Assembly: GCA_903830625.1 (NCBI GenBank)
Contig: CAIKUK010000009.1
Coordinates: forward strand, 1 to 49,689
Source: Candidatus Yanofskybacteria bacterium
Lineage (GTDB): Bacteria > Patescibacteriota > Minisyncoccia > 2-02-FULL-40-12 > GWA2-44-9
DNA length: 49,689 nt
Direction of reading: 5' to 3'
A program made the position numbers and the translations under genes. The notes beneath the pieces are model-generated. The model was not told the origin of the DNA and ran no database searches. It was given only the letters and a program-made list of their open reading frames with translations. This document shows positions 10,749-40,031 of the stretch, piece after piece (the first letter of the stretch is position 1; each line of letters starts with the position of its first letter).

Positions 10749-11324
10749 TTATCGCTTAAATAATTCCTCAGTCAGTTCAGTAACGCCGATTTTCTTTTCG
10801 GCGGAATATGGAATGACTTTATATTTACCAACTGTTTTTTGAATACTCTGCATCTGTTTGACGTATTCGGATTTTTTAATCTTATCCACTTTATTGGCCA
10901 CAATCAAGATATTTTTATTTCGTTCTTCCAGCCCGCGCAAGATTTCTTTGTCGTTGGCGGTCAGGCCGATTTCGGCGTCAATAATCAAAAGCACCAATTT
11001 CTGCTGATAATGCGAGTTGAACAGATACCAAAAAATTATCTTCTTGAGTTTGTCCCGTCCACCTTCATCGGCTTTAGCGTAACCATAGCCAGGCAAATCC
11101 ACGAGATAAAAAGATTTGTTGATTAAAAATAAATTGACTTCCTGGGTCCGTCCGGGAAACGAGCTGGTTCGGGCCAAATCTTTTTGCTTGGTCAGAGAAT
11201 TGATAATGCTGGACTTGCCCACATTGGAACGCCCAATCAGAGCGATATGGTCTTTGCCGTCATCCAGAGCTTCATCGTCTCCGATAACGCCCTTCACAAA
11301 TTTTGCCGATGTTATTGTTGGCAT
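10749..11324 (-). CDS. engB: Ribosome biogenesis GTPase YihA/YsxC
   Basis: GRSNVGKSS, PGRT, DLPGYGYA, NKVD; start MPTITSAKF. Confidence 0.95.
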   Translation of the reverse strand: MPTITSAKFVKGVIGDDEALDDGKDHIALIGRSNVGKSSIINSLTKQKDLARTSSFPGRTQEVNLFLINKSFYLVDLPGYGYAKADEGGRDKLKKIIFWYLFNSHYQQKLVLLIIDAEIGLTANDKEILRGLEERNKNILIVANKVDKIKKSEYVKQMQSIQKTVGKYKVIPYSAEKKIGVTELTEELFKR

Positions 11325-11460
11325 CCCGCACATAACAGCCATCAGTTGCTGTAACGCAGTACAATTTAACTTTGCTGATGCGTTTAGCTTCCAGAATGGT
11401 CTGTCTTGTTAATTATACTTATTCCCGCAACACGTACTGCATATGGCTGTTATGTGCGGG
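11325..11460. mobile_element. 136-bp MITE-like element, copy 1, abutting engB ATG
   Basis: 18-bp perfect TIR CCCGCACATAACAGCCAT/ATGGCTGTTATGTGCGGG; near-identical copy at 39814-39949. Confidence 0.85.
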
Positions 11461-11492
11461 AAAAAAGTGGGGGTCGCGTTGGCGCGACCCCC
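11461..11492 (-). terminator. Intrinsic terminator of upstream orphan gene
   Basis: Minus strand GGGGTCGCG-CCAA-CGCGACCCC followed by ACTTTTTT. Confidence 0.7.
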
Positions 11493-11512
11493 AGAACTTG
11501 GCGGTGGAACCG

Positions 11513-12605: not shown

Positions 12606-12623
12606 ACTGCCTCCTTATGTGAA

Positions 12624-19037: not shown

Positions 19038-19311
19038 AAATCTCCTCTAAAGAAAGCAAATTATCATTCCAATACCCATCAGCATAGGTTCGTAGATAAG
19101 GAGTTTTTCCCGGGTCATTTCTCACGACAGCTACTTCTGCACGCTTTCTGTTTTGGGGATCGATAACATAAAAAGTGTCTATGCGAGTATCTATTCTTCT
19201 AATCGCATCTTCTCTGGTTAATATCCACCCCGCTCCGCCAACATGAGTGATATGCTCATGTGAACTAAAACGATTCGGTTTTCTGATTCCAGTTATTTTT
19301 ACGTCTGCCAT
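19036..19311 (-). CDS. DUF3892 domain protein
   Basis: HEHITHV, TREDAIRRI, YLRTYADG..NDNLLSL. Confidence 0.8.
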   Translation of the reverse strand: MADVKITGIRKPNRFSSHEHITHVGGAGWILTREDAIRRIDTRIDTFYVIDPQNRKRAEVAVVRNDPGKTPYLRTYADGYWNDNLLSLEEI

Positions 19312-19444
19312 TTTATTGAATCTTGAATATTTTTATTTATCCCTCGACCGATTTAAAATCCGTTTAGGTTGCTCTAAATATAGCAACCATGTTTTAACCG
19401 TCAAGAGTGTCAAGTGGATAATTGACGTAAGCACAAAAGAGCGA

Positions 19445-19655
19445 CGCCCAAGCCATTTGAAAGACTCCCCGCAGGCCTTTCAGCTATTCCAGTAAGGCGA
19501 TAGCCGGCCAGATGCCATTGAGGTTCCCAGTTTGAGTCATCAAACTGTTGGACCGAAATAGCATTGGCGTAGATTGGTGCTGGGTGAAAGGCTGAGGGAT
19601 AGGCGCGAATCTTCGCTGGAAAGATGAGACGCCGGTCTTTCAAATGGTTTGGGCG
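19445..19655 (+). ncRNA. Candidate structured ncRNA (or MITE), ~210 nt, unknown class
   Basis: 21-bp closing stem with one G-U on plus strand; nested helices GCCTTTCA/TGAAAGGC, CAGTTTGA/TCAAACTG, GCTAT/ATAGC, GGCG/CGCC. Confidence 0.5.
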
Positions 19656-19660
19656 GAGCT

Positions 19661-20119
19661 TTATCCCAAACGCCGAACGGCGAAAATCGCCGTGATATAC
19701 GCCGTGAAGAAAAACAACAGACCTGTGAAACAGGGCGTGAGCAATGGGAAGACACCGGGAGCACAACTGATGGAAACGGTATTGGCGCCGAAGAGTTTAT
19801 AATATTCAATAAATTCATAGGCCACGACCGAACCGGCAAAGAAGACGCAAAACAATAAAAAGTTACGGAGATAGCGCTGACGCGTGTAGCCGGGCTTGAG
19901 CCAATTAGAGAAAGACCAGACCGTCGCAAAAATGAAAGCCATTGACCCCCAGAAACAGGGCGTCAAGAAAGGATTAGAAATAACGCAGTCCTTAAAACGA
20001 AAGACCGTGCCATAAACCATTTTAAAATTATCAAATTGCCCCAAAAGCTTAGACCAAGCAAAAATAGTCCCGCCGACCAGTATCAAAGACTGTCCCAAAA
20101 GAAGAGTTTTTATTTTCAT
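19661..20119 (-). CDS. Membrane protein with paired Cys motifs (redox/VKOR-like?)
   Basis: 4 TMs; internally repeated C-x6-LTPCFxG motifs. Confidence 0.65.
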   Translation of the reverse strand: MKIKTLLLGQSLILVGGTIFAWSKLLGQFDNFKMVYGTVFRFKDCVISNPFLTPCFWGSMAFIFATVWSFSNWLKPGYTRQRYLRNFLLFCVFFAGSVVAYEFIEYYKLFGANTVSISCAPGVFPLLTPCFTGLLFFFTAYITAIFAVRRLG

Positions 20120-23642: not shown

Positions 23643-24644
23643 TTACCTTTTCGCCATCACGTTTTTTTTGTAGGTGTTGAGGTTTTCTAGAACAATGCCC
23701 GTGCCTCTTGCCACGCAAAACAACGGGTCATCGGCGACACGCGCCGGCACGCCTGTAATCCTAGTGATGAGAGTGTCGATATGTTTGAGCAAAGCGCCAC
23801 CCCCGGAAATAATAATGCCTTTATCCATAATGTCGGAACAGAGTTCGGGAGGCGTGACTTCCAGCACTGATTTTATAATTTGAATAATTTCGTGAAGTTG
23901 TTCGGTCAAAGCTTCGGTTATTTCATTGGAACTCACTTCGATAGTTTTGGGATAACCTGATGTTAAGTCCCGGCCTTTGATGCTGATTTTTTCTTCGGTC
24001 GGCATTTTAATGGCACAGCCGATATTTATTTTTATCAGTTCGGCTGTTCGTTCGCCAATAGCCAGGCCGTGCTTCTTTTTAATATATTCCACGATAGCTT
24101 TATCCAGTTTATTCCCGCCAATACGCACCGATTCGGAACTGACGATGCCGCCTAAAGAAATAACAGCCAGTTCGGTGGTTCCTCCGCCGATATTCAAGAT
24201 CATATTACCCGAAGGACTGTTAATAGGAATTTTGGCGCCGATAGCAGCCAAGACCGGCTCTTTAACCAGATAAACTTCTTTAGCGCCGGCCCGCAGACCG
24301 GCTTCCATAACCGCTCGGCGTTCAGTGGAAGTGATGCCCGCCGGTACGGAGATTAAAACTTCGGGTTTAAAGAATCTCAAAATACCGCCGGATTTTTTTA
24401 TAAAATAACGGAGCATCGCGCCAGTGACCCGATAATCGGCAATGGCGCCGTCCACCAGAGGTTGAGAAACAATAATGCTTTCCGGCGCTCGGCCGATCAT
24501 CTCTTTAGCTTCAGAGCCGACCGCCAGGATTTTATTATCCAAAACCGAAATGGCCACCACCGAGGGTTCATTGATAACAATCCCCTTTTGGGGCAAAAAG
24601 ACGACCGTGTTTGTAGTACCCAAATCAATACCTATGCTTCTCAT
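23643..24644 (-). CDS. mreB: Rod shape-determining protein MreB/Mbl
   Basis: IGIDLGTTNT, NEPSVVA, EPVLAAIGA, IGGGTTE, SGGGALL; start MRSIGID. Confidence 0.95.
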   Translation of the reverse strand: MRSIGIDLGTTNTVVFLPQKGIVINEPSVVAISVLDNKILAVGSEAKEMIGRAPESIIVSQPLVDGAIADYRVTGAMLRYFIKKSGGILRFFKPEVLISVPAGITSTERRAVMEAGLRAGAKEVYLVKEPVLAAIGAKIPINSPSGNMILNIGGGTTELAVISLGGIVSSESVRIGGNKLDKAIVEYIKKKHGLAIGERTAELIKINIGCAIKMPTEEKISIKGRDLTSGYPKTIEVSSNEITEALTEQLHEIIQIIKSVLEVTPPELCSDIMDKGIIISGGGALLKHIDTLITRITGVPARVADDPLFCVARGTGIVLENLNTYKKNVMAKR

Positions 24645-24647
24645 AGT

Positions 24648-24803
24648 ATAACTTGCTGACCGCTCTGCTGTGCCTCCTGGCACTTAAGCAGGCTCTTGAT
24701 TGATTCCTTCGTTAAAATCTCCGCTTCTCCTTTCGCCATATGTCTATATGGCTCAGTCGAATGCTCGATTTTGCCTCGGACTCAGTCAAGTCAGCTGCGT
24801 TAT
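24648..24803. mobile_element. ~156-bp palindromic element at mreB start, flanked by duplicated CATAGT
   Basis: Imperfect TIR ATAAC..GCTGAC/GTCAGC..GTTAT; CATAGT (minus ACTATG) at 24642-24647 and 24804-24809. Confidence 0.6.
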
Positions 24804-24877
24804 CATAGTTTATTTATGATTGGATATCAATGATTGATATCCTGGCCAAAGTGCTTAAAATATTGTACTATCGCCCC

Positions 24878-25767: not shown

Positions 25768-25965
25768 TTACGAATCGAGACCACGTGGATTGTTCGTCGT
25801 GGCCATTCGGAGGATGGCAGCCTGCATGGCATCTCCGGGCCTTCGATGTTCCTGCCGGTATTCTTCCGGAGCAGCGTGTCCGCATCCTTTGCAGTCCCAG
25901 CCATCAAAAACTGGGTCTCCCTTACCGCATCCCGGACAGGAAAATCGAGCCAACTCTTCAGACAT
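25768..25965 (-). CDS. Small zinc-finger hypothetical protein
   Basis: SD GGGAGGG, CPGC...CKGC. Confidence 0.55.
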   Translation of the reverse strand: MSEELARFSCPGCGKGDPVFDGWDCKGCGHAAPEEYRQEHRRPGDAMQAAILRMATTNNPRGLDS

Positions 25966-26106
25966 GATCCCTCCCATCAGTGCAGAAAGAGATGACACAC
26001 AACCCAATGAGCTAAATCCATAGTAGTCTTTATAAAAAATTAAAGAAGGCACTGGTTGTGCATATCGCCAGTGGCGACGCACAACCAGTGCCTTGATTCT
26101 CGGCTC

Positions 26107-26298
26107 TCACCCCTGAAAGGCTTCGCGGATTCTCCGCAGATTGGCCGGTTCCTTCTTCCCGTTGCCGTTGGCGACATTGGGGGTTATAGCCGGCTCCGGC
26201 TCTGATGGTTCTTCTTCTTCGCCGGAGATGATGATACAACCGCAATTGACACAGAACTTCCCCCAATCACCTTCCTTGTGACAAACCTGACACTTCAT
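26107..26298 (-). CDS. Small zinc-ribbon hypothetical protein
   Basis: SD AAGGAG, CQVC...FCVNCG. Confidence 0.6.
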   Translation of the reverse strand: MKCQVCHKEGDWGKFCVNCGCIIISGEEEEPSEPEPAITPNVANGNGKKEPANLRRIREAFQG

Positions 26299-26313
26299 GG
26301 AAGTGACTCCTTT

Positions 26314-26853
26314 TTAACGCTTGTTCCACTGTGGCGCTTTTCTGGCCTTCTTTAAGCCGTACTTGCGGCGTTCTTTGGCGCGGGAATCGCGAGTGAGAAA
26401 ACCGGATTTCTTGAGCTTCTTGCGGAAGTTGGCATCAAACAATTCCAGGGCGCGGGAAATACCGTGTTTAATGGCGCCGGCTTGGCCGGCGATACCGCCG
26501 CCGTGAACCATGACCGTGGCCTTGAATCGGTTGATGGATTTAAGTTTGCGGAGCGGAGATTCCACAATGTGTTGCAAATTAACATCACTGAAGTAGTCGG
26601 TATAACTTTTTTGATTGACCATAATGATGGCTTTCTCTTCACTGGCGACGTCGGTTGATTTTTTAGTAAAAAGACGGACACGAGCAATGGCTTCTTTACG
26701 TCGGCCGACAGTTTCAAAATATTTCTCCGGGCCCTTTTCTTCGGCCTCAATCACTTCTTCCGGTGCGGAAACAACCACCTCTTCGTCGAGGATTGGGACG
26801 ACTGCTTTTGCTTTCTTGGGTTTAATTGTTTTTACCGCTTTCTTGATAGGCAT
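26314..26853 (-). CDS. rpsI: 30S ribosomal protein S9 (N-terminally extended)
   Basis: [45 protein letters not shown]. Confidence 0.97.
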
Positions 26854-26856
26854 ATA

Positions 26857-26924
26857 TTTAGGGTGTTAGGTCTTTAGGGTTCTAGGAGCTAGGTTCCTGA
26901 ATTCCTAGACACCTAGTTTCCTGA
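26857..26924. repeat. 8-nt-period TAGG/CCTA repeat element, copy 1
   Basis: Shares TTAGGTCTTTAGG..TCTAGG...TTCCTGA with 27760-27819 and 29399-29451. Confidence 0.75.
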
Positions 26925-26925
26925 T

Positions 26926-27267
26926 TTACTGAAATTTCAAATTCTTGATTATTTTGTCGCGAGTTTTGTTATCGGGCAACATCCGGTAAACCATGTGGCG
27001 GAAAACTTCCTGCGGATTCTTGGCCCATTCTTCGCCCAAATTGCGGGCGCGAATACCGCTGTGATAACCGGAATAATGGTAATAGGTTTTCTGTTCCAGT
27101 TTTTTCCCCGTGAACTTGGCCGATTTTAAATTGGAAATGACGACTTCCACGTTAGCCAGTTTTTCCGGAGCATAAGACGCCAGATGTTTGCCGCGCAAAA
27201 CCTCCGCGACTTTAGTGGCGATGCGTCCCAGAGATTGATTAGTAGCGTCAATTGGATAGGTAGTCAT
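26926..27267 (-). CDS. rplM: 50S ribosomal protein L13 (short)
   Basis: IDA...LGRIAT, LRGKH, TGKK, YYHYSGY, MLP. Confidence 0.95.
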   Translation of the reverse strand: MTTYPIDATNQSLGRIATKVAEVLRGKHLASYAPEKLANVEVVISNLKSAKFTGKKLEQKTYYHYSGYHSGIRARNLGEEWAKNPQEVFRHMVYRMLPDNKTRDKIIKNLKFQ

Positions 27268-27377
27268 CCCGTTAGAAATGTAGCAAACCGTCCACCGTAT
27301 TGTGGTGGTGGCAGGTTATATTTATTTTTAAATTATTGATTTTCATAATTATACCCGTAGGGTTCATTTCTAACGGG
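27268..27377. mobile_element. 110-bp MITE-like element at rplQ/rplM junction
   Basis: 13-bp perfect TIR CCCGTTAGAAATG/CATTTCTAACGGG flanked by AT on both sides. Confidence 0.8.
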
Positions 27378-27756
27378 ATTTGGCTGGAGTGGTTGTTGGG
27401 GTGGCCTTTAAACCAGTTAATTCGATTATGGCCATTTCGGCGCCGTCGCTTTGGCGCTGGCCCAAACGGATAATCCTGGTATAGCCCCCCTTGCGGTCGG
27501 CATTGACTTTAACCACTTCGCTCATCAGTTTTTTAACGGCTGTCTCACCGACATGGCCCAGCAATTCCCGGCGGGCATTCAAATTATCACGCTTGGCGAG
27601 GGTAATCAACTTATCAATAACCGGAGCCAATGACTTAGCTTTAGCTTGGGTGGTCTTAATATGACCGTGGCTGATCAAAGCCGTCACCAGCGATTTGTAC
27701 ATCGCGGTTCGGACTTTGCGGTCTAGGCCGAATTTTCGTTGATTGCCTCGTTTCAT
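27370..27756 (-). CDS. rplQ: 50S ribosomal protein L17
   Basis: IKTTQAKAK, LITLAK, RKGGYTRI, RQSDGAEMA. Confidence 0.97.
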   Translation of the reverse strand: MKRGNQRKFGLDRKVRTAMYKSLVTALISHGHIKTTQAKAKSLAPVIDKLITLAKRDNLNARRELLGHVGETAVKKLMSEVVKVNADRKGGYTRIIRLGQRQSDGAEMAIIELTGLKATPTTTPAKSR

Positions 27757-28600: not shown

Positions 28601-28760
28601 AAACCTATATCAACCAAGCCCTTTCGCTTAAAAACAAACTGACTTCGGCTGCAAACAACTCAATACTTCTCGAAATATAACCAATATTTCTCGGCGCATT
28701 TCGTTGTTTTCGCTCGAACTCATTTTGTTTCAGCATGAAAAGCATGGTTGGTATAGGTTT
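28601..28760. mobile_element. 160-bp palindromic element between rpsD and rpoA
   Basis: TIR AAACCTATATCAACCA/TGGTTGGTATAGGTTT abutting the rpsD stop. Confidence 0.6.
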
Positions 28761-30853: not shown

Positions 30854-32740
30854 CTAATAGGATACGTCAACTTGGACCTTATCCTTATTATTTGGGATAG
30901 ACCTGACCCAAAATGGGGACAAATTAACATTGGCCGAAGTAATGCCGGAAATTGAGCCTAGATAAGCCCTCATATCGGCGTCATTCTTGCCCAATAGGTC
31001 GGTAATAATCTTTTGTTGGTCCACTTTGGAATAGCCGGGACCGGTCACATGAACCGTAAAGGATAGGCCGTTTTTGGCTTCATCCCAACGAGGATTGGTG
31101 TAGGTTATGGTTAATTTGTCCAGCAAAACGGTTTTACTTTTTTGAGTATCCACATATTGACTAATCAGAGTGTAAAGGTCGGATTCTTTAAAACCGATGG
31201 TTTTGAGTGAGCCAGCTAGATTAACCTTGAAAGTGCTGGCGGTCGCGTCGGCGGGACTGGTTGAGCTGGGACTGCCGATAACCACCTGACTGTCGTTTAT
31301 GATTTTCAAACCATTGATTTGGGTTTTAAGTTCATCTTGAATGTTAGCGGTAAGCAAAGTCGTCAAAGTTTGTTTGGCCGTATTTAAATCAGATTCCGTT
31401 ACCACGGTGGACTGACCGCTGGTGCCATTAAGGATGGGCGCGGTCGATTGGCCGTAAACTTTTTGATATTTTTCCGTATTCCCCTGTTCTTTAAAAGCCG
31501 GAATAGTAAACAAACCCACCGGGACGTTATATTCCGAACCGGCTTTATCGGCGATAACTTGAACATCCTTACTGCCTGGCACCAGTTTGCCGCTAACAGT
31601 TTTGCCGGCCGGTACCACAATCGAAGTCAAAGTGTGAAAAATATGGTGGTCGGCTGATTCGAAACGCGTGGTCGTTACCAGGGGCTGATCCGTTGTCAGT
31701 TCGTTATAAACCGTAATCGTGCCTCGGGCTTTTTGAGCGACATCCACATGACCCGTGGCGATAAAGTCCTGAGAAACGGTTTTTTGAATATTGAAGAGTT
31801 GGCCCGGTACCGCCATACCCGTTAAACTAACGGCCGAAGTATTATCCGAAGCGAACACGGTCAGACTGAAATCCAGCGGCTGGCTGGCTGGCTTAATTGT
31901 CACTTGGGCTTTCCCGGTCGTAATAAAAACAACCGTGCCCAAAATAATGACCGCCACACAAGCCATGGCAATCAGACCGATGCGATGGGAAGAACGCCTA
32001 GGACGGTCAAATCCGTTGGAAACAAGTTTTGGTTTAAAATTTGATAACGAACGTCTGGTTCGGCTAAACCAGCCCATCGCTTTCGGCGCCAAGTTTGTCT
32101 CCGTTGGAATAGCCCGAGAACCCCAGACACTTTTTATTTCCTGCAAGGCGCGATGTTCAAGAGGTTCATCAGAGAAGTCGCTTTGTCTGATTTCCACCGG
32201 AATAGTTTTTTCACGTCCGCCGTAAACTTTCACGTTGCGCTGGTTTTCAGTTCCAGGCACAAAGATGTCATCCAAGCGTCGGCCATTGGGAGAATCATCA
32301 TCTTCTAAATCATCGCTGGTTTCTTCTTTAACTTGTGCTGTTGATGTTGAAATTGAATCTTCACTCGTGGCTGGCTCGGAATAAAAGTCTTCGATCTGGT
32401 TGACCACGCTGATTGAGCCTGAATCGGCCGGGACCAGTCGAGACGAGCTTGTTTGCCGGCTAACAGATTTCTTGGGGGCCGACGAACGGGCCAGAAGAAC
32501 ATCAAATTTATATTTTTTAGCCAAATCGTTCAGTTCCGGACTGGAACAAAGAAAAGAAACCGATTTTCCGAGACTCTTAGATTCGTCTTTGAGAGAAGCA
32601 AAATGCTCTTCTCTCTTGAAAGCCCGGGCGCTTTTGGGCAGTACGAAAATCACTTCTTCGGCCGAGGTGGATTTGAAGAGGTCTAAAATCTCTTCAAACG
32701 AATCATCCTTGAGAACATTGATAATCTTTGTGGAAGACAC
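30854..32740 (-). CDS. Membrane-anchored protein with baseplate J-like extracellular region
   Basis: N-terminal cytoplasmic domain, TM, AQKARGTITVYN, VIADKAGSEYN, LSPFWV. Confidence 0.7.
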   Translation of the reverse strand: MSSTKIINVLKDDSFEEILDLFKSTSAEEVIFVLPKSARAFKREEHFASLKDESKSLGKSVSFLCSSPELNDLAKKYKFDVLLARSSAPKKSVSRQTSSSRLVPADSGSISVVNQIEDFYSEPATSEDSISTSTAQVKEETSDDLEDDDSPNGRRLDDIFVPGTENQRNVKVYGGREKTIPVEIRQSDFSDEPLEHRALQEIKSVWGSRAIPTETNLAPKAMGWFSRTRRSLSNFKPKLVSNGFDRPRRSSHRIGLIAMACVAVIILGTVVFITTGKAQVTIKPASQPLDFSLTVFASDNTSAVSLTGMAVPGQLFNIQKTVSQDFIATGHVDVAQKARGTITVYNELTTDQPLVTTTRFESADHHIFHTLTSIVVPAGKTVSGKLVPGSKDVQVIADKAGSEYNVPVGLFTIPAFKEQGNTEKYQKVYGQSTAPILNGTSGQSTVVTESDLNTAKQTLTTLLTANIQDELKTQINGLKIINDSQVVIGSPSSTSPADATASTFKVNLAGSLKTIGFKESDLYTLISQYVDTQKSKTVLLDKLTITYTNPRWDEAKNGLSFTVHVTGPGYSKVDQQKIITDLLGKNDADMRAYLGSISGITSANVNLSPFWVRSIPNNKDKVQVDVSY

Positions 32741-33057
32741 CGGGTAGTAGAACTTCGAGTTGCCGCAACAAGATTATGGCTTGAAGAGGTAATCGCGAAG
32801 CCTTCGTTTTAATAATCGTGAACCTTGATTTGTTTTTAAATACCTTTCTCTACGCTTAGCGTCATTTGCATGAAGACAGGCTTCGCAGTAAACAATACTC
32901 CATGATTCGCCATTTTTAGTAGACTTGTTGCGGCCTTGATTATGTTCCAACAATCGCCTCTTCAGATTTTCTGTATATCCTATGTATAATTCCTTATTTT
33001 TATTTTCTAGCACGTAGACGTAATGGAACATAACCCTCTCGAAGTTTCACTACCCGG
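32740..33057. mobile_element. 318-bp TIR element carrying a GIY-YIG nuclease, inserted in a start codon
   Basis: TIR CCGGGTAGTAGAACTTCGAG/CTCGAAGTTTCACTACCCGG (18/20); ACA duplicated at 32737-39 and 33058-60. Confidence 0.8.
32774..33031 (-). CDS. GIY-YIG nuclease (UPF0213/SLX1-like)
   Basis: YVYVL...LYIGYT.NLKRRL.EHN.G, YCEA, A.RRERYLK. Confidence 0.92.
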   Translation of the reverse strand: MFHYVYVLENKNKELYIGYTENLKRRLLEHNQGRNKSTKNGESWSIVYCEACLHANDAKRRERYLKTNQGSRLLKRRLRDYLFKP

Positions 33058-33243
33058 ACATGTATAAATTAATATACCAAATTGTTGCCTACAAGTATAG
33101 CCTATGTTATACAAGTTATGAGGAGGTACCTATCAAGAGACCAGGACCCTGTAGGGGCCAGCAAGGCCATTGAGGTCGCCCGGGCGACAACCAATCGAAG
33201 GTATCGCCGGTTCAAGTTCTGGAACTGAGAAAAGGGAGCAGTT

Positions 33244-33525: not shown

Positions 33526-34561
33526 ACGCCAGAGACTCAAGTTTTTCGAGAGTCTCTGGCGCTGTTTTTATTTTCATTAACTTGTTACGAATTTCTTTAG
33601 CACCTTCAAAATCATTGATATATATCTTTATGAACCTTTTCATAACATCAAAGTTTTTGCCCGCACCCCAAAGCTCCACAAAGTTTTGAATATGTTTTTT
33701 GAGTAAGTTTATACGTTCTTCTCGTGTATGTACTTCAGATGGATTAACCCCCACACTCAGTTGGTTGCTGGCTTTGCCATCTGAAGATTCAATCAACTGA
33801 GTGTGGGGGTGAAAAAACCAAGGATTTTGAAATATCCCCCGGCCGACCATAATGCCGTCCAAATCATATTGCTTAGCTTTTTCTATGCCTTCAGTGTAAC
33901 TCATCACATCCCCATTACCGACAACAATAATGCCGGCTGCGTGGCAAAGTCGCGCGGCTTTGCCAATCTCATCCCAATGAGCGGGCGCTTTTGATGCTTC
34001 TTTCATTGTCCGGCCGTGAACAATAATGGCATCCGGTTTGGCTTCAATGATTTTTGATACCCATTCTTCGGTAACAATTGTGTTGTAGCCGATACGGGTT
34101 TTTATTGAAACCGGCAAATTGCCTGCTCCACGTTTGGTTTCAATGATTATTTGTTGAGCTAATTCGGGATTATTAATTAAAGCGGCCCCGGAATTCTGTT
34201 TTAGAATTTTTCTTTCGGGACAACCCATATTGATATCGATACCATCAAAACCTAATTCCGCAATAAGTTTGGCGCATTCATAAAAATGTTCGGGCACGCT
34301 TCCGAATATTTGCGCCACAATCGGCCGTTCGTTTTCTTTAAATGATAAATGAGGCAATAGTTTAGCTTTGCCCGCCATAGCTTTAGCGTCGGCGGGGCCA
34401 GCTTTCATTACATAATTCAAACCATCCGCCGACACAAATTCAGTATACAAAACATCTGGCTTGCCACAATCGCAAACGATCTGCCTAAACGCCATATCGG
34501 TCACATCCGACATCGGCGCCAGGACGAAGAAGGGTTTTTTAAGTTGTTTCCAGAAATTCAT
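33500..34561 (-). CDS. dusB: tRNA-dihydrouridine synthase (with two palindromic inserts)
   Basis: LAPMSDVTD, TEFVS, DINMGCP, SIKTRIG, VHGRT, GNGDV, MVGRG. Confidence 0.9.
   Translation of the reverse strand: MNFWKQLKKPFFVLAPMSDVTDMAFRQIVCDCGKPDVLYTEFVSADGLNYVMKAGPADAKAMAGKAKLLPHLSFKENERPIVAQIFGSVPEHFYECAKLIAELGFDGIDINMGCPERKILKQNSGAALINNPELAQQIIIETKRGAGNLPVSIKTRIGYNTIVTEEWVSKIIEAKPDAIIVHGRTMKEASKAPAHWDEIGKAARLCHAAGIIVVGNGDVMSYTEGIEKAKQYDLDGIMVGRGIFQNPWFFHPHTQLIESSDGKASNQLSVGVNPSEVHTREERINLLKKHIQNFVELWGAGKNFDVMKRFIKIYINDFEGAKEIRNKLMKIKTAPETLEKLESLASRVSTKPA
33747..33810. repeat. 64-bp in-frame palindromic element in dus
   Basis: 17-bp perfect IR ACCCCCACACTCAGTTG/CAACTGAGTGTGGGGGT; encodes HPHTQL...LSVGV. 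Confidence 0.85.
34371..34396. repeat. REP-like hairpin in-frame in dus
   Basis: CCCGCCATAGCTTTAGCGTCGGCGGG; encodes PADAKAMAG. Confidence 0.65.
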
Positions 34562-34947: not shown

Positions 34948-36783
34948 TTATTCAACTGTGGCTCGGATACGGCGGTTGCCTCCGGAGACGGATTCTTCTT
35001 TAGTGATAGTGATATGGCCGATCTCGCCGGTATGGGTCACATGGGGACCGGCGCAAATCTCGCGGGAGAACCAATTATTATCTTCGCCGACCGTATAGAC
35101 TTTGACTCTCGGCGGATACTTAGCCTTAAAGATACCCGCGGCGCCGGAATCCAAAGCTTCCTGTAAATCCACTTCTTTAAATGTCACCGGCAAATCTTTT
35201 TTCACGATTTCGTTAGCCATATCCTCGGCCTGTTTCAATTCTTCGGGAGTAATTTTTCTGGGAAAATTAAAATCAAATCTCAACCGCTCTACCGTAATAT
35301 CAGCTCCGGCTTGAGCCAATTCCTGGCCTAAGACTTTCCGCAGGGCCGCATCCAGAAGATGAGTCGCCGTATGCAAACGAGTTTTCTTTTTCATTTCTTC
35401 TCTTCTCTCAACTGATAAGTCGGCTTCTTTTACCCCCACACCAAACGAACGATTGCCTTCGGCGCTCCCGACTTCGTTTGTTATGGTGTGGGGGTGAATG
35501 CCATGCCCGCCGAATTTCTTTTCCACGCCGGCGCGAGAAATATTTTTATGAATTTCCATTTCTTTATTAAATCCTTCCTCATCAAATTCATATAGATGAT
35601 TCTCTGCTATTTCTTTAATAACTTCTGGTGGGAATCCATAACTTTGATATAAATCAAAGGCATCCTTGCCTGAAATTTTTTGCCCCACTACAAATGGCTT
35701 TACACTTTGTCCTGGCACCAGTTCTTGAGCCTTGAGGCCAGGATATTTTTTATAGAATTCCTCAAGTCCTTTATCAAGTGTCAGGAGAAACTTAGTAACT
35801 TCTTTGGTAAATTCATTAATTATTGACTGTTGGTTATCTATTAATTCAGAATGACTCTTCCCGTATTCGATAATAATTTTTTGCATGAAATCGGCTATAA
35901 CACTGGTTGGTATTTGGATATTTTTCGAATGGACAAGAAGGCGTCTTATTAATTTTCTTAGTATATAACCCCTCTCCTTATTTGATGGTTGTACCCCATC
36001 AGCAATTAAAAAAACGGAAGCCCTTAGATGGTCGGCTATTATTCTGCCACTTTTTAATTCATCGGGCGCTCCTGCAAATAAAGCAAACGAGAAAACATTA
36101 CTAAACAGGTCAGTTTCAAAAATATTGCTTTTATTCTGAACAACCATCGCCAAGCGTTCCAGGCCCATGCCGGTATCAATGCCTTTTATGGCCAGTGGTT
36201 TCAGTTGTTTGTCGGCGCTTTGATAGTACTCATTAAAAACGATATTCCAAACCTCAAGGTCGTTTACATAAATTTCAGTCGTCGGACCACAAGGACCTTC
36301 CTCCCCGGTCGGTCCCCAAAAATTATCCTCTCGGCCAGCTCTTTTTATTTTCAATGCCGGATCAATCGATTGCCATATCTTTTCCGATTCTTCATCCGCT
36401 GGCACTCCTTCTTCGCCTTGAAAAACCGAAACGTAATCAATGGTCAGACCCATTTCTTTGGTAATGAATTCGTGGGCATATTCAATGGCTTCCTTTTTCC
36501 AATAATCTCCGAACGAGAAATTACCGAGCATTTCAAAGAAAGTCAGGTGTGAATCATCTCCCACCTCGTCAATATCCGAAGTGCGCAAACATTTTTGAAT
36601 AGAAACGACATTTTTGTCCGGCGCTTCGGCCGGGTTTATATAATATGGCTTGAATTGTTGCATGCCGGCCGTTGTAAACAAAACCGACGGGTCGGTCGGC
36701 AACAACGACGAAGACGGCACCACGGCGTGCCCTTTTGATTCAAAAAATTTAATAAACCTCTCCCGTATTTCCTTCTGAGTCAT
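34948..36783 (-). CDS. alaS: Alanine--tRNA ligase (short form, no C-Ala domain)
   Basis: FTTAGMQQFK, HLTFFEMLGNFSFGDY, GPCGP, DTGMGLER, HTATHL, CAGPH. Confidence 0.97.
   Translation of the reverse strand: MTQKEIRERFIKFFESKGHAVVPSSSLLPTDPSVLFTTAGMQQFKPYYINPAEAPDKNVVSIQKCLRTSDIDEVGDDSHLTFFEMLGNFSFGDYWKKEAIEYAHEFITKEMGLTIDYVSVFQGEEGVPADEESEKIWQSIDPALKIKRAGREDNFWGPTGEEGPCGPTTEIYVNDLEVWNIVFNEYYQSADKQLKPLAIKGIDTGMGLERLAMVVQNKSNIFETDLFSNVFSFALFAGAPDELKSGRIIADHLRASVFLIADGVQPSNKERGYILRKLIRRLLVHSKNIQIPTSVIADFMQKIIIEYGKSHSELIDNQQSIINEFTKEVTKFLLTLDKGLEEFYKKYPGLKAQELVPGQSVKPFVVGQKISGKDAFDLYQSYGFPPEVIKEIAENHLYEFDEEGFNKEMEIHKNISRAGVEKKFGGHGIHPHTITNEVGSAEGNRSFGVGVKEADLSVERREEMKKKTRLHTATHLLDAALRKVLGQELAQAGADITVERLRFDFNFPRKITPEELKQAEDMANEIVKKDLPVTFKEVDLQEALDSGAAGIFKAKYPPRVKVYTVGEDNNWFSREICAGPHVTHTGEIGHITITKEESVSGGNRRIRATVE
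35432..35495. repeat. 64-bp in-frame palindromic element in alaS
   Basis: 12-bp perfect IR ACCCCCACACCA/TGGTGTGGGGGT; encodes HPHTIT...FGVGV; same ends and length as the dus element. Confidence 0.85.
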
Positions 36784-36822
36784 TACTGTTTAAATATACC
36801 AGTAAACACGCCTATATTCAAT

Positions 36823-39813
36823 CTAGCTCATCGTCCGACGCAACGCGCAGTATTCACAATCCTTATCGTCGCAGAAACGGTTCCAGAATTTGAGATTTAA
36901 GATTTCATCGGCCGTTTCTTTAATGACCTCGGTCAATTCTTCCACTTCTTCAGGCAAAATGATAAACGATTCTTTTTTATATTTTCCTTTTTCGTCAGGC
37001 TCAATGAAATCAATATCGCCCGAAACCATGATGTATTTACGGCCATCTTCATATTTATTCAGAAGTAAATTATAGAACATCAGCTGGCGTTTAATATCGC
37101 CGTTGGAACTCTTGGTTGAACCTTCTATCTCGCCTCGGGTTTTCGGTTTTGAAGTTTTGTAATCCACCACATTCACTTCTTTGCCAGAGCCGAGCATTTC
37201 TATCTTATCTATTTTGCCGGTAATCCTAATATCCCCGACGCTTCGGTCGGGGCGGGCCGGCGCAAGCATAATTCCTCGGAGTTCCAATTCAGTTATCGTT
37301 TTTGTCCGCCAAGAGCCGTGATAATTATCGAAGTAGCCAGCCAAGGTTTTATTTCCTTTTTCCAGCAGTTCGTCATATTCTTTTTTACTTAATGGCTGGC
37401 GTTTTAAATAAGTCTCAAATCTAGACAAAAGAAACTTTTTATCCGCTTTGCCGGTTCGATAAGAATCAAAGAAATCTTTGAGCGTGTAATGCACGGCCGT
37501 GCCGTACATCTGATGCTTGGTTTTCGCCTGCGGAATACGGAGCAGATTGGTATAAAAATATTTCCACGGACAATCCAGATAATTATTCAGAGCGGTGACG
37601 GAAAGGCCGTTACGTTTGAACAGGTCGCCGATAAAAGCTTTACTTTTCAGATCAATACCTTTTTGGATCCGCGGAGCAAAAATTATCTCTTTCTTTTTGG
37701 CAAAATTCTTTTCAATCAACTCGGTGTCTTTGGTGGCAATCAGTTCGGGTTTTATTTCCGTGATGAATTGGCAAGGCAACTGGTCTTGCCCGCTTAAACT
37801 TTCTTTGGCATAAGAAATAGACGCGCCTTTCTTGGCTCTGGTCAGGGCCACGTAGAATAACCGCCGTTCATCATCTTCTGTCGCGCCTTTGTCCAGAATC
37901 CGGCCAGTCAGCGAAAATACCCTCGCCGGTAAGACTAAATGGTTCGGCCGGCGTTTATTGCCCCAATGGCCGTCATAAGCGTTGATAATATAGACGTATT
38001 CAAATTCCTGGCCTTTGGAACGATGTGCGGTCATGAGCCGGATTTGCCCTGCGGATGAGCTGATGCTTTTCTTTAATAATAGATTGTGGGTTTTGAGCGT
38101 AGCCAGATATTGCAGGAATTCCGGCAAGCCGTTCGTCGGATGGACTTCCACCAAATTTTTAATTTCATCAAACAAGCCGTTTAATTTATCCAGCTTCTCC
38201 ATGGTCTGGCCCTTCATGATGTATTTCAAAAATCCCGATTCGGTAATTATCTTTTCAAAAAGTTCCGGCAAAGAAATATTATGCGCCAGCGTGGCCCAGC
38301 CGGCCAGAATTTTATAAAAATTCAAAAAGGCTTCCGGATTTTCCACACCCGCTTTTTTAAGCCGGGTTTTTGATTTTATTATTTCATAAGCCGAAATCTT
38401 TTCTTTATGCGCGGATTCTATAATTTTAAACACGTCCAGCATTTCAAATCCTAAAAAATCAATATTCAGCGCTTCAAGCAGTTTCTGTTCGGAACCGAAA
38501 GTCTGCACTGTTTCCAGAATAAGCAAAACTTTTCTGATATCATAATCCGATAACAAGTCCTGGTCGGATTCAATGGCGAACGGCAGACCGGCTTTTTCAA
38601 ACATGGCCGCCACCGGCGCGGCATCGCGATTATCACGATACAAAACGGCAATTTCTTGAGGTTCAGTGCCGGCTTTTATTTTACTTTTAATATCTTCGGC
38701 TAGGAAAAAATATTCCGCCTCCGGTTTTGAGAATTCATACACGCCTATTTTTTCTTTAGGATGCACCACGTTGGCGCTTAAGGGCTTCTCGCCGGCCAGC
38801 AAGCTATGGGCCGCATCCAGGATTGGCTGGGTAGAACGATAATTCTCTTCCAGAACAATCAGTTTAGCCGACGGATACAATTTTTTAAAATATAAGAAAT
38901 TTTCCAGCGAAGCGCCTTGGAAACGGAAGATGGCTTGCTTCTCATCGCCAACCACAAAGATATTCGGATTGTCGTGATAATTGGCCAGCAGTTCCAGAAT
39001 TTTGTTTTGGGCGTTATTGGTATCTTGATGTTCGTCCACCAAAAAATACTGATACTGTTCTTGAATCTGGAGCAAAAGATTTTCATTCGCGGAAAGTTCG
39101 CGCAGCGTTTCCATAATCATGTCGCTGTAATCATAAAGCTTGGCGGACATCAGTTTGACTTGATACCATTCGTAAATTTTAGCCAGTTCGGCATTTTTGG
39201 CGATTTGTTTTTGCAGTTTTTGATAGTCGCCTTTCATTTTGCCCTTGTGAGCTCCTTTTTCATGATACAAATCATCAATCGCTTCAAAGCTTTTTAATTC
39301 AGCCGTAATAATCTTATGAAACTGCTCGGGCGAAACGCCTTCGCGTTTTAAATCATTCAAACACGCCAAAATCGGGCGGACATAAAACATCGGGTCGCCA
39401 AACGGTCTTAATTCTTTGAGCGGCAAAGTGCCAATCGCCTCCTCTATTAAATTAACCTGATCTACTTCGGTGATATTGTTCGCGCCGATAATGCGTGGAA
39501 ATTCTCCAGGATTGGATTTGATGATTTCGTTACAGAATCCATGAAAAGTATTGATGGCCACCGAATAAGCCGGCGTACCGATCATCTCAGCCAGCCGGCT
39601 GCGCATGGAAGCCACGCCCGATTCGGTAAAGGTCAGCGCTAAAATATTGCCCGGATTGATTTGAGTTTTTTGAAGAATGTTGGCGATGCGCAGAGTTAAG
39701 ATTTGGGTCTTGCCCGTGCCTGGCCCAGCCACCACCATAACCGGCCCTTCGATAGCATCGACGGCCTCGCGCTGGGCCTTATTGAGTTGTTTATAGGCTT
39801 CCTTGAATTCCAT
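36823..39813 (-). CDS. UvrD/PcrA-like SF1A helicase with C-terminal PD-(D/E)XK nuclease and Cys cluster
   Basis: AGPGTGKT, VDEHQD, VGDEKQAIFRF, NYRS, TAHRSKGQEF, YVALTRA, GKIDK..VDYKT, CDDKDCEYC. Confidence 0.92.
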   Translation of the reverse strand: MEFKEAYKQLNKAQREAVDAIEGPVMVVAGPGTGKTQILTLRIANILQKTQINPGNILALTFTESGVASMRSRLAEMIGTPAYSVAINTFHGFCNEIIKSNPGEFPRIIGANNITEVDQVNLIEEAIGTLPLKELRPFGDPMFYVRPILACLNDLKREGVSPEQFHKIITAELKSFEAIDDLYHEKGAHKGKMKGDYQKLQKQIAKNAELAKIYEWYQVKLMSAKLYDYSDMIMETLRELSANENLLLQIQEQYQYFLVDEHQDTNNAQNKILELLANYHDNPNIFVVGDEKQAIFRFQGASLENFLYFKKLYPSAKLIVLEENYRSTQPILDAAHSLLAGEKPLSANVVHPKEKIGVYEFSKPEAEYFFLAEDIKSKIKAGTEPQEIAVLYRDNRDAAPVAAMFEKAGLPFAIESDQDLLSDYDIRKVLLILETVQTFGSEQKLLEALNIDFLGFEMLDVFKIIESAHKEKISAYEIIKSKTRLKKAGVENPEAFLNFYKILAGWATLAHNISLPELFEKIITESGFLKYIMKGQTMEKLDKLNGLFDEIKNLVEVHPTNGLPEFLQYLATLKTHNLLLKKSISSSAGQIRLMTAHRSKGQEFEYVYIINAYDGHWGNKRRPNHLVLPARVFSLTGRILDKGATEDDERRLFYVALTRAKKGASISYAKESLSGQDQLPCQFITEIKPELIATKDTELIEKNFAKKKEIIFAPRIQKGIDLKSKAFIGDLFKRNGLSVTALNNYLDCPWKYFYTNLLRIPQAKTKHQMYGTAVHYTLKDFFDSYRTGKADKKFLLSRFETYLKRQPLSKKEYDELLEKGNKTLAGYFDNYHGSWRTKTITELELRGIMLAPARPDRSVGDIRITGKIDKIEMLGSGKEVNVVDYKTSKPKTRGEIEGSTKSSNGDIKRQLMFYNLLLNKYEDGRKYIMVSGDIDFIEPDEKGKYKKESFIILPEEVEELTEVIKETADEILNLKFWNRFCDDKDCEYCALRRTMS
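37233..37252. repeat. REP-like hairpin in-frame in the helicase-nuclease gene
   Basis: CCCCGAC-GCTTCG-GTCGGGG; same arms as 45739-45758. Confidence 0.65.
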
Positions 39814-39949
39814 CCCGCACATAACAGCCATCAGTTGCTGTAACGCAGTACAATTCAACTTTGTTGATGCGTTCAGCTTCTAGAATGGTCTGCTTTGTTA
39901 ATGACTTTTCGTCCCGCAACATGTACTGCCTATGGCTGTTATGTGCGGG
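39814..39949. mobile_element. 136-bp MITE-like element, copy 2, with 7-bp target duplication containing the start codon
   Basis: Same 18-bp TIR as copy 1; ATTCCAT at 39807-39813 and 39950-39956. Confidence 0.88.
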
Positions 39950-40031
39950 ATTCCATGTTCAGAGTATATCATTTTTATAAATTGACAGGATGGTTTTATA
40001 TTCATACAATCTCCCGAGGAGGGTGGGTAGT

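Follow-up and report, generated by a model that had tools for sequence, protein, structure and literature searches.

The stretch of DNA considered here (the window; 49,689 nucleotides of contig CAIKUK010000009.1 from Candidatus Yanofskybacteria bacterium) contains five inverted-repeat elements located at the start codons of five genes, all encoded on the - strand, and the elements were found where the first-pass annotation had placed them. An A-type MITE-like element of 136 bp (11325–11460, - strand), with inverted-repeat ends CCCGCACATAACAGCCAT and a perfect 19-nt inverted repeat, lies flush upstream of an engB-like GTPase gene, the start codon of which (CAT on the + strand, 11322–11324) immediately adjoins it. 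No flanking duplicate was found at this element, and its other end is adjoined by an intrinsic-terminator-like hairpin of the upstream gene; the orthologous site in a sister genome (G004) is empty and consists of the terminator, a 13-nt spacer and ATG. Upstream of mreB there is a B-type repeat, a long imperfect hairpin of 156 bp (24648–24803, - strand), flanked by CATAGT at 24642–24647 and 24804–24809 (ACTATG on the gene strand), with the mreB ATG at 24642–24644 (- strand), 3 nt from the element. G004 shares the insertion at mreB.

A C-type MITE-like element of 110 bp (27268–27377, - strand; ends CCCGTTAGAAATG) is located between the genes of ribosomal proteins L17 and L13 (rplM), flush with the rplM start codon (CAT, 27265–27267), and the L17 stop codon TAG (27370–27372) falls within it. 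Among four genomes of the genus, this site is occupied in the genome of the window (G000) and in G004 and empty in G002 and G005, as it is in contigs of run X2, a related metagenome population. The fourth, D-type element is long (318 bp; 32740–33057, - strand), has 20-nt inverted-repeat ends CCGGGTAGTAGAACTTCGAG and is flanked by ACA at 32737–32739 and 33058–33060; the GTG start (32738–32740) of a 627-aa ORF is made up of the terminal G of this element and TG. The element is absent from an X2 contig, in which 32735 is joined to 33057 with 321 bases skipped, and the ortholog of the 627-aa ORF in G004 has an ATG start and just a 17-nt left-end footprint of the element. The D element had been taken for a non-coding hairpin, which is incorrect: its sole ORF (32774–33031, - strand), overlooked earlier and the key to the system, encodes a putative GIY-YIG nuclease of 85 aa. 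Pfam confirmed the gene names proposed previously except one, as the 627-aa ORF downstream of the D element, called baseplate-J-like, had no Pfam match.

The fifth element, again A-type and of 136 bp (39814–39949, - strand), is flush with the ATG of a UvrD-like helicase-nuclease gene and is flanked by the 7-nt repeat ATTCCAT at 39807–39813 and 39950–39956. In an X2 contig lacking it, 39806 is joined to 39950, 143 bases being skipped and 7 letters fitting either side, and at the same start codon in G004 there is a different element, a 69-bp C-type one. Six nucleotides before the upstream copy of the UvrD-like ATG there is a -10-like hexamer, TATACT (39963–39968, - strand), the signature of a leaderless gene. 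Flanking repeats containing the start codon occur at four of the five elements and not at engB, and the AT duplicate reported for rplM should rather be taken as the outermost pair of its inverted repeat.

These elements were initially regarded as unrelated. Judging from the similarity of their ends and contents, A (engB and UvrD-like), C (rplM) and D rather form one superfamily of inverted-repeat elements: termini of the CCCG...CGGG form are common to A and C, and long members with a GIY-YIG ORF are known with A-, C- and D-type ends. The long members measure 278–318 bp, and their sole ORF corresponds to a nuclease of about 85 aa (UPF0213/SLX1-like); the short ORF-less members (about 70–140 bp) are MITE-like derivatives. 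The sizes are 134–136 bp for A, 69–122 bp for C and about 156 bp for B, with a conserved ORF in none of them, and the arms are perfect (13–20 nt) in A and C and imperfect in B. B (mreB) is a separate repeat outside this superfamily. Of 25 other genomes from the same family, 14 have copies of it, in one orientation, in which 0–5 nt separate the 3' end CAGCAAGTTAT from an ATG; indels shift the reading frame between the copies, and no nuclease-bearing long partner was found in the material searched. A1, A2/C, B and D have different interiors, and the same element precedes unrelated genes. One subfamily has an asymmetric conserved interior with a CCACC...GGTGG hairpin and a TATAAT-like box, the latter not being conserved across a 28-copy alignment. 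Relatives contain up to 146 TCTAACGGG ends per genome versus 3–8 for controls. Another inverted-repeat family of the window, the 66-nt elements of the CCCCCACAC type, is situated in-frame inside ORFs and not at starts.

The location at start codons was studied with an inventory of CCCG-type elements (ends CCCGTTAGA or CCCGCACATAA, at most one mismatch), in which an element was counted as being at a start if it abuts an ATG with which an ORF of 60 aa or more begins. The convergence on start codons proposed for the window was borne out in the whole 598-kb genome, where 15 of the 18 CCCG-ended elements abut such an ATG (binomial tail 9e-32, the null being 528 gene starts per 97,075 gene-free bases), and in G004 the proportion is 34/44 (1e-66). 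The random intergenic null puts about 0.6% of elements at a start codon, and a motif-plus-survivorship null, which requires a TGAA, TGGA or TGAG repeat and tolerates every gene-free site, gives 8–9%; the pattern is thus far beyond chance. Almost all elements of at least 100 bp (43/45) are at starts, and so are all 24 copies of a 104–110-bp subfamily in G004 (BLAST identity 69–91% to the window copy). Shorter elements with the same ends are at starts in 6/17 cases and elsewhere in 11/17. A T precedes CCCG in 49/49 start-adjacent copies, and in all 198 comparable copy pairs (those with internal similarity) both copies face the same way with respect to their genes. As an internal control, 29 other inverted repeats of G000 with arms of at least 14 nt were considered, none of which is flush with a start codon. 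Ortholog alignments begin at residue 1 in 22/27 cases, and the position aligned with this start is also an ATG in the second genome. Across the order, an ATG follows 204 of the 708 TCTAACGGG ends, but this count is weak by itself, as the AT could be part of the repeat.

In G000, 6/15 start-adjacent copies lie between direct repeats that open with ATG and measure 5 nt or more; in G004 this is the case for 11/34. The duplicated words (ATGAA, ATGGA, ATGAG, ATGGAAT, TGT) begin at or just inside the start codon, and their length is not fixed (3–7 nt); such variation is unusual for one transposase. Empty orthologous sites with one copy of the repeat were found in eight G004/G000 pairs, so that the empty sites predicted for sister genomes do exist, both there and in the X2 metagenome contigs. 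It may be concluded that all five elements of the window arose by insertion of small transposon-like elements bearing terminal inverted repeats, and that they are not conserved leaders. Several insertions are old and shared, namely those at rplM, mreB and two other sites, which occur in genomes whose flanks are just 76–84% identical. No duplicate was found in 3/15 (G000) and 12/34 (G004) start-adjacent copies; in these, the element directly follows the stop codon of the upstream gene and a T, and the spacer, 0–17 nt long in empty orthologs, is missing. Therefore, a second event or another mode of joining is needed for such copies.

The ORF of the D element matches Pfam PF01541 with E 2.5e-15 (57 bits at a curated cut-off of 22.6), and only GIY-YIG and the overlapping T5orf172 were found in it by Pfam, so the nuclease is a bare catalytic domain without a DNA-binding domain. 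The core motifs of this superfamily are named by the Tyr of 'GIY', the Tyr and Gly of 'YIG', Arg, His and Glu; residues Y6, Y16, G18, R26, H30 and E62 are invariant across seven paralogs. Its nearest solved structures are those of UPF0213 proteins, 1zg2 (E 8e-21) and 1ywl (1.7e-15), followed by SLX1 (2.6e-5), and from these matches the 85-aa protein is assigned to the GIY-YIG superfamily as a putative nuclease of the UPF0213/YhbQ type. Homologs, searched for between 46 and 149 aa in length, have 76–130 aa, and the ORF is under purifying selection (median dN/dS 0.19 for 38 pairs).

The gene is widespread, being present in 124 of 151 genomes sampled from the class. Five of the eight GIY-YIG ORFs in G000 lie within inverted-repeat elements with five end types, including A, C and D; three have no inverted repeats, and two of these are between tRNA genes. 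At 30 GIY-YIG loci, flanking inverted repeats, mostly (A)TCCCGTTAGAGAT, were found in 24 and a host start at the junction in 16, one of which was rebuilt as GTG by a G-ended variant. The ORF ends 4 nt beyond the element in 10/14 long members of the C type, the stop being TGA over ATGA or GTGA in nine and TAA over GTAA in one, and an upstream ATG is in frame with the nuclease ORF in 3/6. The conserved C-terminus of the nuclease (...FLSLTG) is encoded by the right inverted repeat. This stop-start overlap is limited to C-type long elements: in the D and CCCCCACAC-type long elements the nuclease stop is about 20–40 nt before the element end, and an internal TAA is found in the long A-type copy of G000. 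Five genomes without a GIY-YIG gene have 0–3 TCTAACGGG ends (controls 1–3) and five with at least 10 such genes have 55–79 (controls 2–10), in a contrast of hand-picked extremes between related, non-independent genomes. No rve, DDE_Tnp_1, DDE_3, Y1_Tnp or TnpB match was obtained in G000, while control genomes do have matches.

On the basis of these data, we consider it rather probable that this transposon-like family integrates into the first bases of ORFs, borrows the initiation signals of the host and hands the ribosomes back. Autonomous members (about 280–320 bp) would consist of two inverted-repeat ends around the lone ORF of about 85 aa and would integrate inside the first bases of a host ORF, always co-oriented with it, with duplication of 4–7 nt. 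Since the element has the form N-CCCG...CGGG-N', its own last base (A, or G in variants) together with the duplicated TG rebuilds ATG or GTG. In the long C-type members, the nuclease ORF would be driven by the upstream copy of the host start region, read through the right inverted repeat and stop at a TGA that shares bases with the host ATG (ATGA), or, at one GTG-start locus, at TAA (GTAA); because of this overlap, terminating ribosomes could re-initiate on the host gene. Host genes may be translated by coupling or across the folded hairpin, and each gene would gain, as a fold prediction, a structured 5' leader. The GIY-YIG protein is a candidate mobility enzyme, and ends that form hairpins or cruciforms would be suitable substrates for a structure-specific nuclease. 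We know of no GIY-YIG transposase. The choice of start codons was probably made at integration and reinforced by selection for this expression arrangement, not only by the loss of other insertions. If one enzyme moves both size classes, selection after insertion must contribute, given the distribution of the short elements (6/17 at starts).

Between the two explanations offered originally, mobilisation aimed at initiation sites is favoured over the survivorship of harmless insertions. The latter, with little site preference and with harmless or loss-lethal copies persisting at starts of a tiny, deletion-prone genome, agrees with a small and dense genome (598 kb, 84% in called ORFs), with short elements off starts (11/17) and with the old insertions common to genomes with 76–84% identical flanks. 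We nevertheless find it improbable as the only cause, as about 97 kb of gene-free DNA is free to use, and the 29 other long inverted repeats there are never flush with a start. Besides, starts make up only 8–9% of tolerated sites even when the target words are required, against the 15/18 and 34/44 observed; all 24 copies of the G004 subfamily are at starts; and the harmlessness of a near-palindrome does not account for the 198/198 orientation. The in-frame position of a different inverted-repeat family of the window inside ORFs also favours targeted mobilisation. A selected function, in which ORF-less elements are portable 5' cassettes (a promoter, leader or mRNA-stabilising or regulatory hairpin) kept by a host lineage largely without Shine-Dalgarno sequences, seems to us doubtful. 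Shine-Dalgarno-like words precede just 34 of 396 genes genome-wide (TAnnnT starting at -12 is found in 56/396), the orientation of ORF-less copies is strict, some insertions are kept at orthologous sites, the interior of one subfamily is conserved, and the A and U of the start codon are base-paired in the predicted stems (z scores -5.5 to -6.3). Yet the interiors differ between the families, the TATAAT-like box is not conserved over 28 copies, presence varies among close relatives at housekeeping genes, no Rfam family matches, and flanking duplications together with nuclease-bearing long forms indicate selfish spread.

The GIY-YIG gene could also be cargo or a homing endonuclease riding in hairpins moved by some other host or trans-acting enzyme. 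The catalytic-domain-only protein, the three genes of G000 without inverted repeats and the B family without a nuclease-bearing member in the material searched are compatible with this, which we still hold to be quite improbable: the long elements have no room for anything else, five transposase families were not found in G000, repeat counts track gene presence in the five-versus-five comparison, and the right inverted repeat encodes a conserved C-terminus. Immobile, vertically inherited leader RNAs or attenuators of housekeeping genes would fit the position upstream of genes and the stable predicted folds, but this explanation is hardly credible, being contradicted by empty orthologous sites and flanking duplications, by the presence of the same element before unrelated genes and by the lack of an Rfam match. 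A known structured RNA leader was rejected on the same ground: no Rfam covariance model matched the elements, the only gathering-score matches in the window were three tRNAs, and region 24600–27420 gave nothing at E up to 1.

Correia elements duplicate TA and are not known to be flush with ATG. The elements studied here are short and non-coding, with terminal inverted repeats, dispersed copies and target-site duplications with empty sites, and in these respects they resemble bacterial MITEs such as Correia/NEMIS of Neisseria (PMC10969869), which, according to that review, often occupy positions immediately upstream of genes, are transcribed together with them as hairpins and are able to influence expression; the terms 'start codon' and 'GIY-YIG' do not occur in the review. 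Unlike Correia/NEMIS, our elements join inside the start codon in a fixed orientation, and their partner encodes a GIY-YIG nuclease and not a DDE transposase. Rickettsia palindromic elements (RPEs) are selfish palindromes inside protein-coding genes, and to our knowledge they have no autonomous partner. The 66-nt family of the window is similar to them in being in-frame inside ORFs, whereas the five elements are untranslated in the host protein, sit at the start codon and restore it. The general likeness to RPEs, as presented in PMC10969869, is that of palindromes colonising housekeeping genes of a reduced genome without lethality.

PATEs, the palindromic elements derived from IS200/IS605, have a Y1 (HUH) transposase or TnpB as partner, and their hairpins are subterminal, with neither inverted-repeat ends nor duplication. 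Such a derivation was rejected, as G000 has no Y1_Tnp or TnpB match and the elements have terminal inverted repeats and duplications. Free-standing GIY-YIG homing genes include I-TevI and the Seg and Mob genes of T-even phages; their enzymes have a sequence-reading DNA-binding domain joined to the catalytic one and are not known to leave inverted repeats or duplicated targets behind, and the genes spread into a single cognate site through repair copying. They have in common with our elements a small GIY-YIG gene between or at the edge of conserved genes and recurrent occupation of the same site, but here a bare 85-aa catalytic domain lies within inverted repeats and duplications and has many ORF-less derivatives. 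A homing endonuclease gene was rejected because of the absence of a joined DNA-binding domain, the repeats and duplications, and the dozens of different host genes. For UPF0213/YhbQ-type proteins and the structure-specific nuclease SLX1, the best solved-structure matches, we know of no role in mobile elements. In the same lineage (Patescibacteria/CPR), proteins of this family are encoded by ORFs in non-intron insertions of rRNA genes and not at start codons of protein genes (PMC11270868); the terms 'inverted repeat' and 'palindrom' do not occur in that paper.

In the literature searched, no description of a start-codon element family was found. In our opinion, it is of interest that in a bacterium with a tiny genome and in its relatives dozens of small mobile hairpins sit on the start codons of ordinary genes.

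The window is a complete contig of 49.7 kb from a genome of 598 kb in 24 contigs (G000), and nearly all genes between positions 150 and 40,000 lie on its - strand. The five inverted-repeat elements which the first-pass annotation had placed at start codons were all recovered where it had put them. An A-type element at 11325-11460, with a perfect 19-nt inverted repeat, is flush with the ATG of an EngB-like GTPase, and a second copy at 39814-39949, 90% identical to the first, is flush with the ATG of a UvrD-like helicase-nuclease and has ATTCCAT on both sides. Two copies of CATAGT enclose the B-type element (24648-24803), which is separated from the downstream mreB ATG by 3 nt. Between L17 and L13, the C-type element (27268-27377) is flush with the L13 ATG and contains the L17 stop codon, and the D-type element (32740-33057), with ACA flanks, gives the G of the GTG start of a 627-aa ORF. 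Pfam bore out the names given to four of the target genes; the 627-aa ORF, named 'baseplate-J-like', is without a Pfam match. Automated ORF calls run engB, mreB and the UvrD-like gene into the elements (10749-11342, 23643-24683 and 36823-39858), placing, for example, MAVMCG ahead of the true M.

The D element, previously taken for a bare hairpin, carries an 85-aa ORF with a GIY-YIG nuclease domain (57 bits against PF01541 of Pfam, cut-off 22.6). Eight such ORFs were found in G000, and five of them are situated within inverted-repeat elements, 278-318 bp long, no two of which share an end type. Because these end types include A (CCCGCACATAA), C (CCCGTTAGAG) and D, the supposedly unrelated A, C and D families are short and long members of one superfamily, the long forms bearing the nuclease. 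The terminal CCCG...CGGG is common to A and C, and the interior of one A subfamily is that of C. The columns Y, Y, G, R, H and E are invariant in the seven intact G000 paralogs, and among solved structures the closest are two UPF0213 proteins, 1zg2 and 1ywl, ahead of the structure-specific nuclease SLX1. Purifying selection acts on the nuclease ORFs, whose median dN/dS is 0.19 in 38 pairs drawn from 11 ORFs, with dS near saturation.

Public homologs, from Patescibacteria/Parcubacteria-group bacteria, are titled only 'GIY-YIG nuclease family protein' or 'putative endonuclease'. Sampling across the class showed a small GIY-YIG gene in 124 of 151 genomes, a single genome having as many as 18 matches. 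Inverted repeats, for the most part the same (A)TCCCGTTAGAGAT, flank 24 of the best 30 nuclease loci, and at 16 of the 30 the junction coincides with the start of an ORF of 60 aa or more. Five class genomes with at least 10 GIY-YIG matches contain 56, 79, 55, 64 and 74 TCTAACGGG ends (reversed-pattern controls 5, 7, 3, 10 and 2) versus 3, 3, 1, 1 and 0 (controls 2, 1, 2, 3 and 2) in five genomes with no match, the extremes having been picked by choice and related genomes not being independent. No match to the rve, DDE_Tnp_1, DDE_3, Y1_Tnp or TnpB families was found in G000, and named control genomes do match.

Two GIY-YIG ORFs of G000, on contig C21 (26541-26771 and 27215-27460), lie between tRNA genes and have no detectable inverted repeats. 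In two other genomes, GIY-YIG elements with ends GCCCCTCACTTG... (L078 in G049:C2 and L081 in G158:C96) are located within the apparent 5' parts of tRNA genes, flanked by the 5-nt repeats GATTA and CGGTA, respectively; such elements would be another target class, of a sister family.

The position of the elements was compared with chance by searching for paired CCCGTTAGA or CCCGCACATAA ends with at most one mismatch, 50-400 bp apart. In G000, 15 of the 18 elements obtained run straight into an ATG that begins an ORF of 60 aa or more, and in G004, a sister genome of the same genus (704 kb, searched whole), 34 of 44 are at starts. The start-codon observation is confirmed and generalised by these data. 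A crude gene call put 528 genes and 97 kb of gene-free DNA in G000, against 639 and 105 kb in G004, so that about 0.5-0.6% of random gene-free positions would abut a start. This gene-free null, which the first-pass annotation had recommended, leaves a strong excess in both genomes (binomial tails 9e-32 and 1e-66). When a TGAA, TGGA or TGAG word was required and all gene-free sites were tolerated, start codons made up 8-9% of sites, and the tails were 1e-13 and 3e-27. An order-wide pattern count, with ATG directly after 204 of 708 ends, is weak alone since AT may be part of the inverted repeat, hence the reliance on ORF-checked counts. The element-adjacent ATGs are, judging by orthologs, real starts, because 22 of the 27 G004 genes with a G000 match align from their first residue, where the ortholog also has an ATG.

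Two readings of this excess had been left side by side, a mobilisation aimed at initiation sites and the mere survival of harmless insertions, and the former is favoured over pure survivorship by the nulls, by an internal control and by orientation. As to the control, G000 contains 45 inverted repeats whose arms measure 14 nt or more and are separated by 30 nt or more; 15 of the 16 which are CCCG-type or GIY-YIG are at starts, and none of the remaining 29 is flush with a start, two having a candidate start within 6 nt. When start-adjacent copies were turned to the gene strand, stripped of their inverted repeats and compared by their interiors, all 198 similar pairs had the same direction and 0 the opposite one, one cluster comprising 28 copies. 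Survivorship may keep a part in the explanation: in G000 and G004 together, only 6 of 17 elements shorter than 100 bp are at starts versus 43 of 45 longer ones, and therefore selection after insertion, or subfamily-specific enzymes, must contribute.

Movement of the elements is recorded in duplications and in empty sites, whose presence in relatives had been predicted. Direct repeats of at least 5 nt beginning with ATG flank 6 of 15 start-adjacent copies in G000 and 11 of 34 in G004. Eight comparisons between these genomes gave an empty ortholog with a single copy of the repeat and an upstream flank aligning to that of the occupied allele, as in caatgtcccatATGAAT[element]ATGAATACC versus caatggcccatATGAACTCT. 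At the L17/L13 junction, G000 and G004 have the element, and two further genomes of the genus, G002 and G005, have an empty site. Three empty sites were found in X2, a run of metagenome contigs from a related population (90-95% alike). At the UvrD-like site, 39806 is joined to 39950, with 143 bases absent and 7 letters fitting either side; at the D site, 32735 is joined to 33057, with 321 bases absent; and the bridge from the L13 start to L17 has 28 different letters where the element would be. Because the shorter side of the X2 pieces measures only 30-63 letters, they are supporting evidence, not proof. What stands at the UvrD-like start codon varies: an A-type element in G000, a C-type one of 69 bp in G004, and no element in X2. 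On contig C9 of G004, upstream of the gene orthologous to the 627-aa ORF, a 17-nt remnant of the left end of D lies between two copies of CTATATGTC and looks like a deletion footprint.

The base ahead of CCCG is T in 49 of 49 start-adjacent copies and T or C in the few others, and it always pairs with the base after CGGG; therefore, the element is best written N-CCCG...CGGG-N'. Under this reading, the duplicated host bases are TGAA, TGGA or TGAG (TGGAA at the UvrD-like gene), and the last A of the element rebuilds the host ATG. A G-ended variant in another genome (L053) makes the host start GTG, the upstream copy being still ATG, and the window's D element likewise yields GTG. In 10 of 15 (G000) and 29 of 34 (G004) target genes, codon 2 has purines at its first two positions, versus about 32-38% of called genes, and the length of the flanking repeat is variable among copies.

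In a second junction class (3 of 15 and 12 of 34 copies in G000 and G004), the element directly follows an upstream stop codon plus T (TAAT or TAGT), with no duplicate. Empty orthologs, known from four G004/G000 pairs and the L17/L13 junction, have the same TAAT or TAGT and then a spacer of 0-17 nt which is absent from the occupied allele. The engB copy is of a similar kind: a terminator, a 13-nt spacer and ATG in G004, and a terminator, the element and ATG in G000. Simple insertion does not explain this class, which could have originated by later deletion of a now harmful upstream ATG or by a second mode of joining.

The nuclease ORF of long C-type elements crosses the right inverted repeat (...FLSLTG) in 10 of 14 cases and stops 4 nt beyond the element; nine of these stops are TGA codons that overlap the host start (ATGA or GTGA) and one is TAA (GTAA). 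Stop-start overlaps are associated with translational coupling, and the C-type arrangement resembles them. The upstream ATG copy is in frame with the nuclease ORF in three of the six elements that retain one. A long C-type element would thus capture the host initiation region for its own nuclease ORF, and ribosomes would be handed back to the host gene via the stop overlapping its first bases. It is a coherent parasitic design, but one confined to the C type: the nuclease ORFs of D and of the CCCCCACAC-type element stop about 20-40 nt short of the element end.

Other explanations of how the elements live at starts were considered together. Coupling cannot account for the ORF-less MITE-like members, since the frame of their upstream ATG ends, as judged by eye, after about 5-30 codons, far from the host ATG. 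A promoter within the MITE has in its favour a TATAAT-like box, found in one subfamily only and unconserved in the alignment of 28 copies, and is rejected as a general explanation. A leaderless transcription start was considered as the sole target. Shine-Dalgarno-like words precede only 34 of 396 called genes in G000 and 42 of 494 in G004, and TAnnnT, a mark of leaderless genes when located at -12, shows a sharp peak starting there (56 of 396 and 71 of 494 genes), so that many genes of both genomes look leaderless. The mark is present at several target genes, such as the UvrD-like gene, and stands at the right distance in about eight duplication-type sites (by eye) versus 14% of all genes. Many other targets, however, lie within operons, among them the sites behind an upstream stop codon, and the transcription-start model alone does not fit. 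Predicted RNA folds of the elements are long stems (z -5.5 to -6.3 on the gene strand) which would pair the A and U of the start codon.

Copies of family B occur in 14 of 25 other genomes from the same taxonomic family. Of 12 loci read, including that of the window, eight have an ATG (ORF of at least 60 aa) 0-5 nt from the 3' end CAGCAAGTTAT, and a ninth, on a cut contig, has one at 0 nt; the orientation is single in all. Compensatory changes between copies were found in the central hairpin. A conserved small ORF was rejected, as the frame differs between copies, and the B terminus occurs in 0 of the best 30 nuclease loci.

Several other repeats were noticed. Palindromic insertions of 66 nt with ends ACCCCCACAC...GTGTGGGGGT occur twice in - strand genes of the window (33747-33810 and 35432-35495); they are in-frame inside dihydrouridine-synthase-like and alanyl-tRNA-synthetase-like ORFs and add 22 residues each (HPHT...GVGV), as Rickettsia palindromic elements likewise do. 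The same end type bounds a GIY-YIG element at G000 C24:46795-47092, and related CCCCTCAC-type copies at C8:5614 and C14:53526 are also within open frames. Perfect gapless palindromes with the common core GCTTTAAAATCTAACAT|ATGTTAGATTTTAAAGC and variable outer arms were found at window 1-58 and, in G000, at C17:5485-5542, C8:42963-43014, C21:1-52, C14:50505-50570, C10:26266-26327, C12:35091-35138 and C23:44244-44285; several are at contig ends, so the assembly broke there. A 221-nt repeat at 19440-19660, with a 26-nt closing stem, has a second copy at G000 C14:42054-42274 (86% identical), in which one internal hairpin is swapped for a different one. Having no Rfam match in a scan of 19300-19800 bar one at chance level, it may represent a structured RNA not yet described, or a further mobile element. 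A 160-bp inverted repeat (28601-28760; 19-nt arms, 89% complementary), single-copy in G000, separates the S4 stop from rpoA; it is not at a start codon, since about 50 nt lie between its end and the likely rpoA ATG downstream.

In description the elements agree with MITEs, and they do not qualify as homing endonuclease genes, IS200/IS605-derived palindromes or Rfam leaders; at the gathering score, Rfam gave 3 tRNAs only in the window, and an E-value scan of 24600-27420 gave nothing. To our knowledge, start codons are absent from the target choices of mobile DNA. A full-text literature search, covering few subscription journals, gave no paper on GIY-YIG inverted-repeat elements or start-codon-seeking MITEs, and none combining Patescibacteria, 'leaderless' and 'Shine-Dalgarno'. 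In the available portion of a 2024 MITE review (PMC10969869), 'start codon' and 'GIY-YIG' do not occur. The accessible part of a 2024 study of CPR rRNA genes (PMC11270868) describes GIY-YIG ORFs in non-intron insertions, unlike homing, and there 'inverted repeat' and 'palindrom' do not occur.

Taken together, these data make it most likely that the elements are a novel, very small kind of transposable element, found widely in Patescibacteria and with MITE offspring. A fuller proposal, to which we give not quite an even chance, is that they form a previously undescribed class of prokaryotic transposable elements, whose sole protein would be an SLX1-like GIY-YIG nuclease of about 85 residues. 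They would integrate in one orientation into host start codons, rebuild the codon by their terminal base, express the nuclease from the captured host initiation region and return ribosomes via a TGA (once TAA) overlapping the host ORF start. Together with MITE offspring and sister families (in-frame in ORFs, in tRNA and rRNA genes), they would be a major, hitherto overlooked influence on the genomes of Patescibacteria. Should the GIY-YIG protein move the elements, it would be a new enzyme class for bacterial transposition, and an autonomous unit of about 300 bp would be among the smallest known.

The elements may explain many unexplained 'GIY-YIG nuclease family protein' genes of Patescibacteria, and misplacement of starts by gene callers is expected for dozens of genes per genome of such kind. 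The findings also bear on translation initiation in lineages where Shine-Dalgarno sites are scarce and leaderless genes numerous. The arrangement suggests how a parasite can occupy essential genes, such as those of MreB, L13, EngB and the UvrD-like helicase, and not kill them: the host gene would survive because its start codon is restored, and the long forms would also couple its translation to their own.
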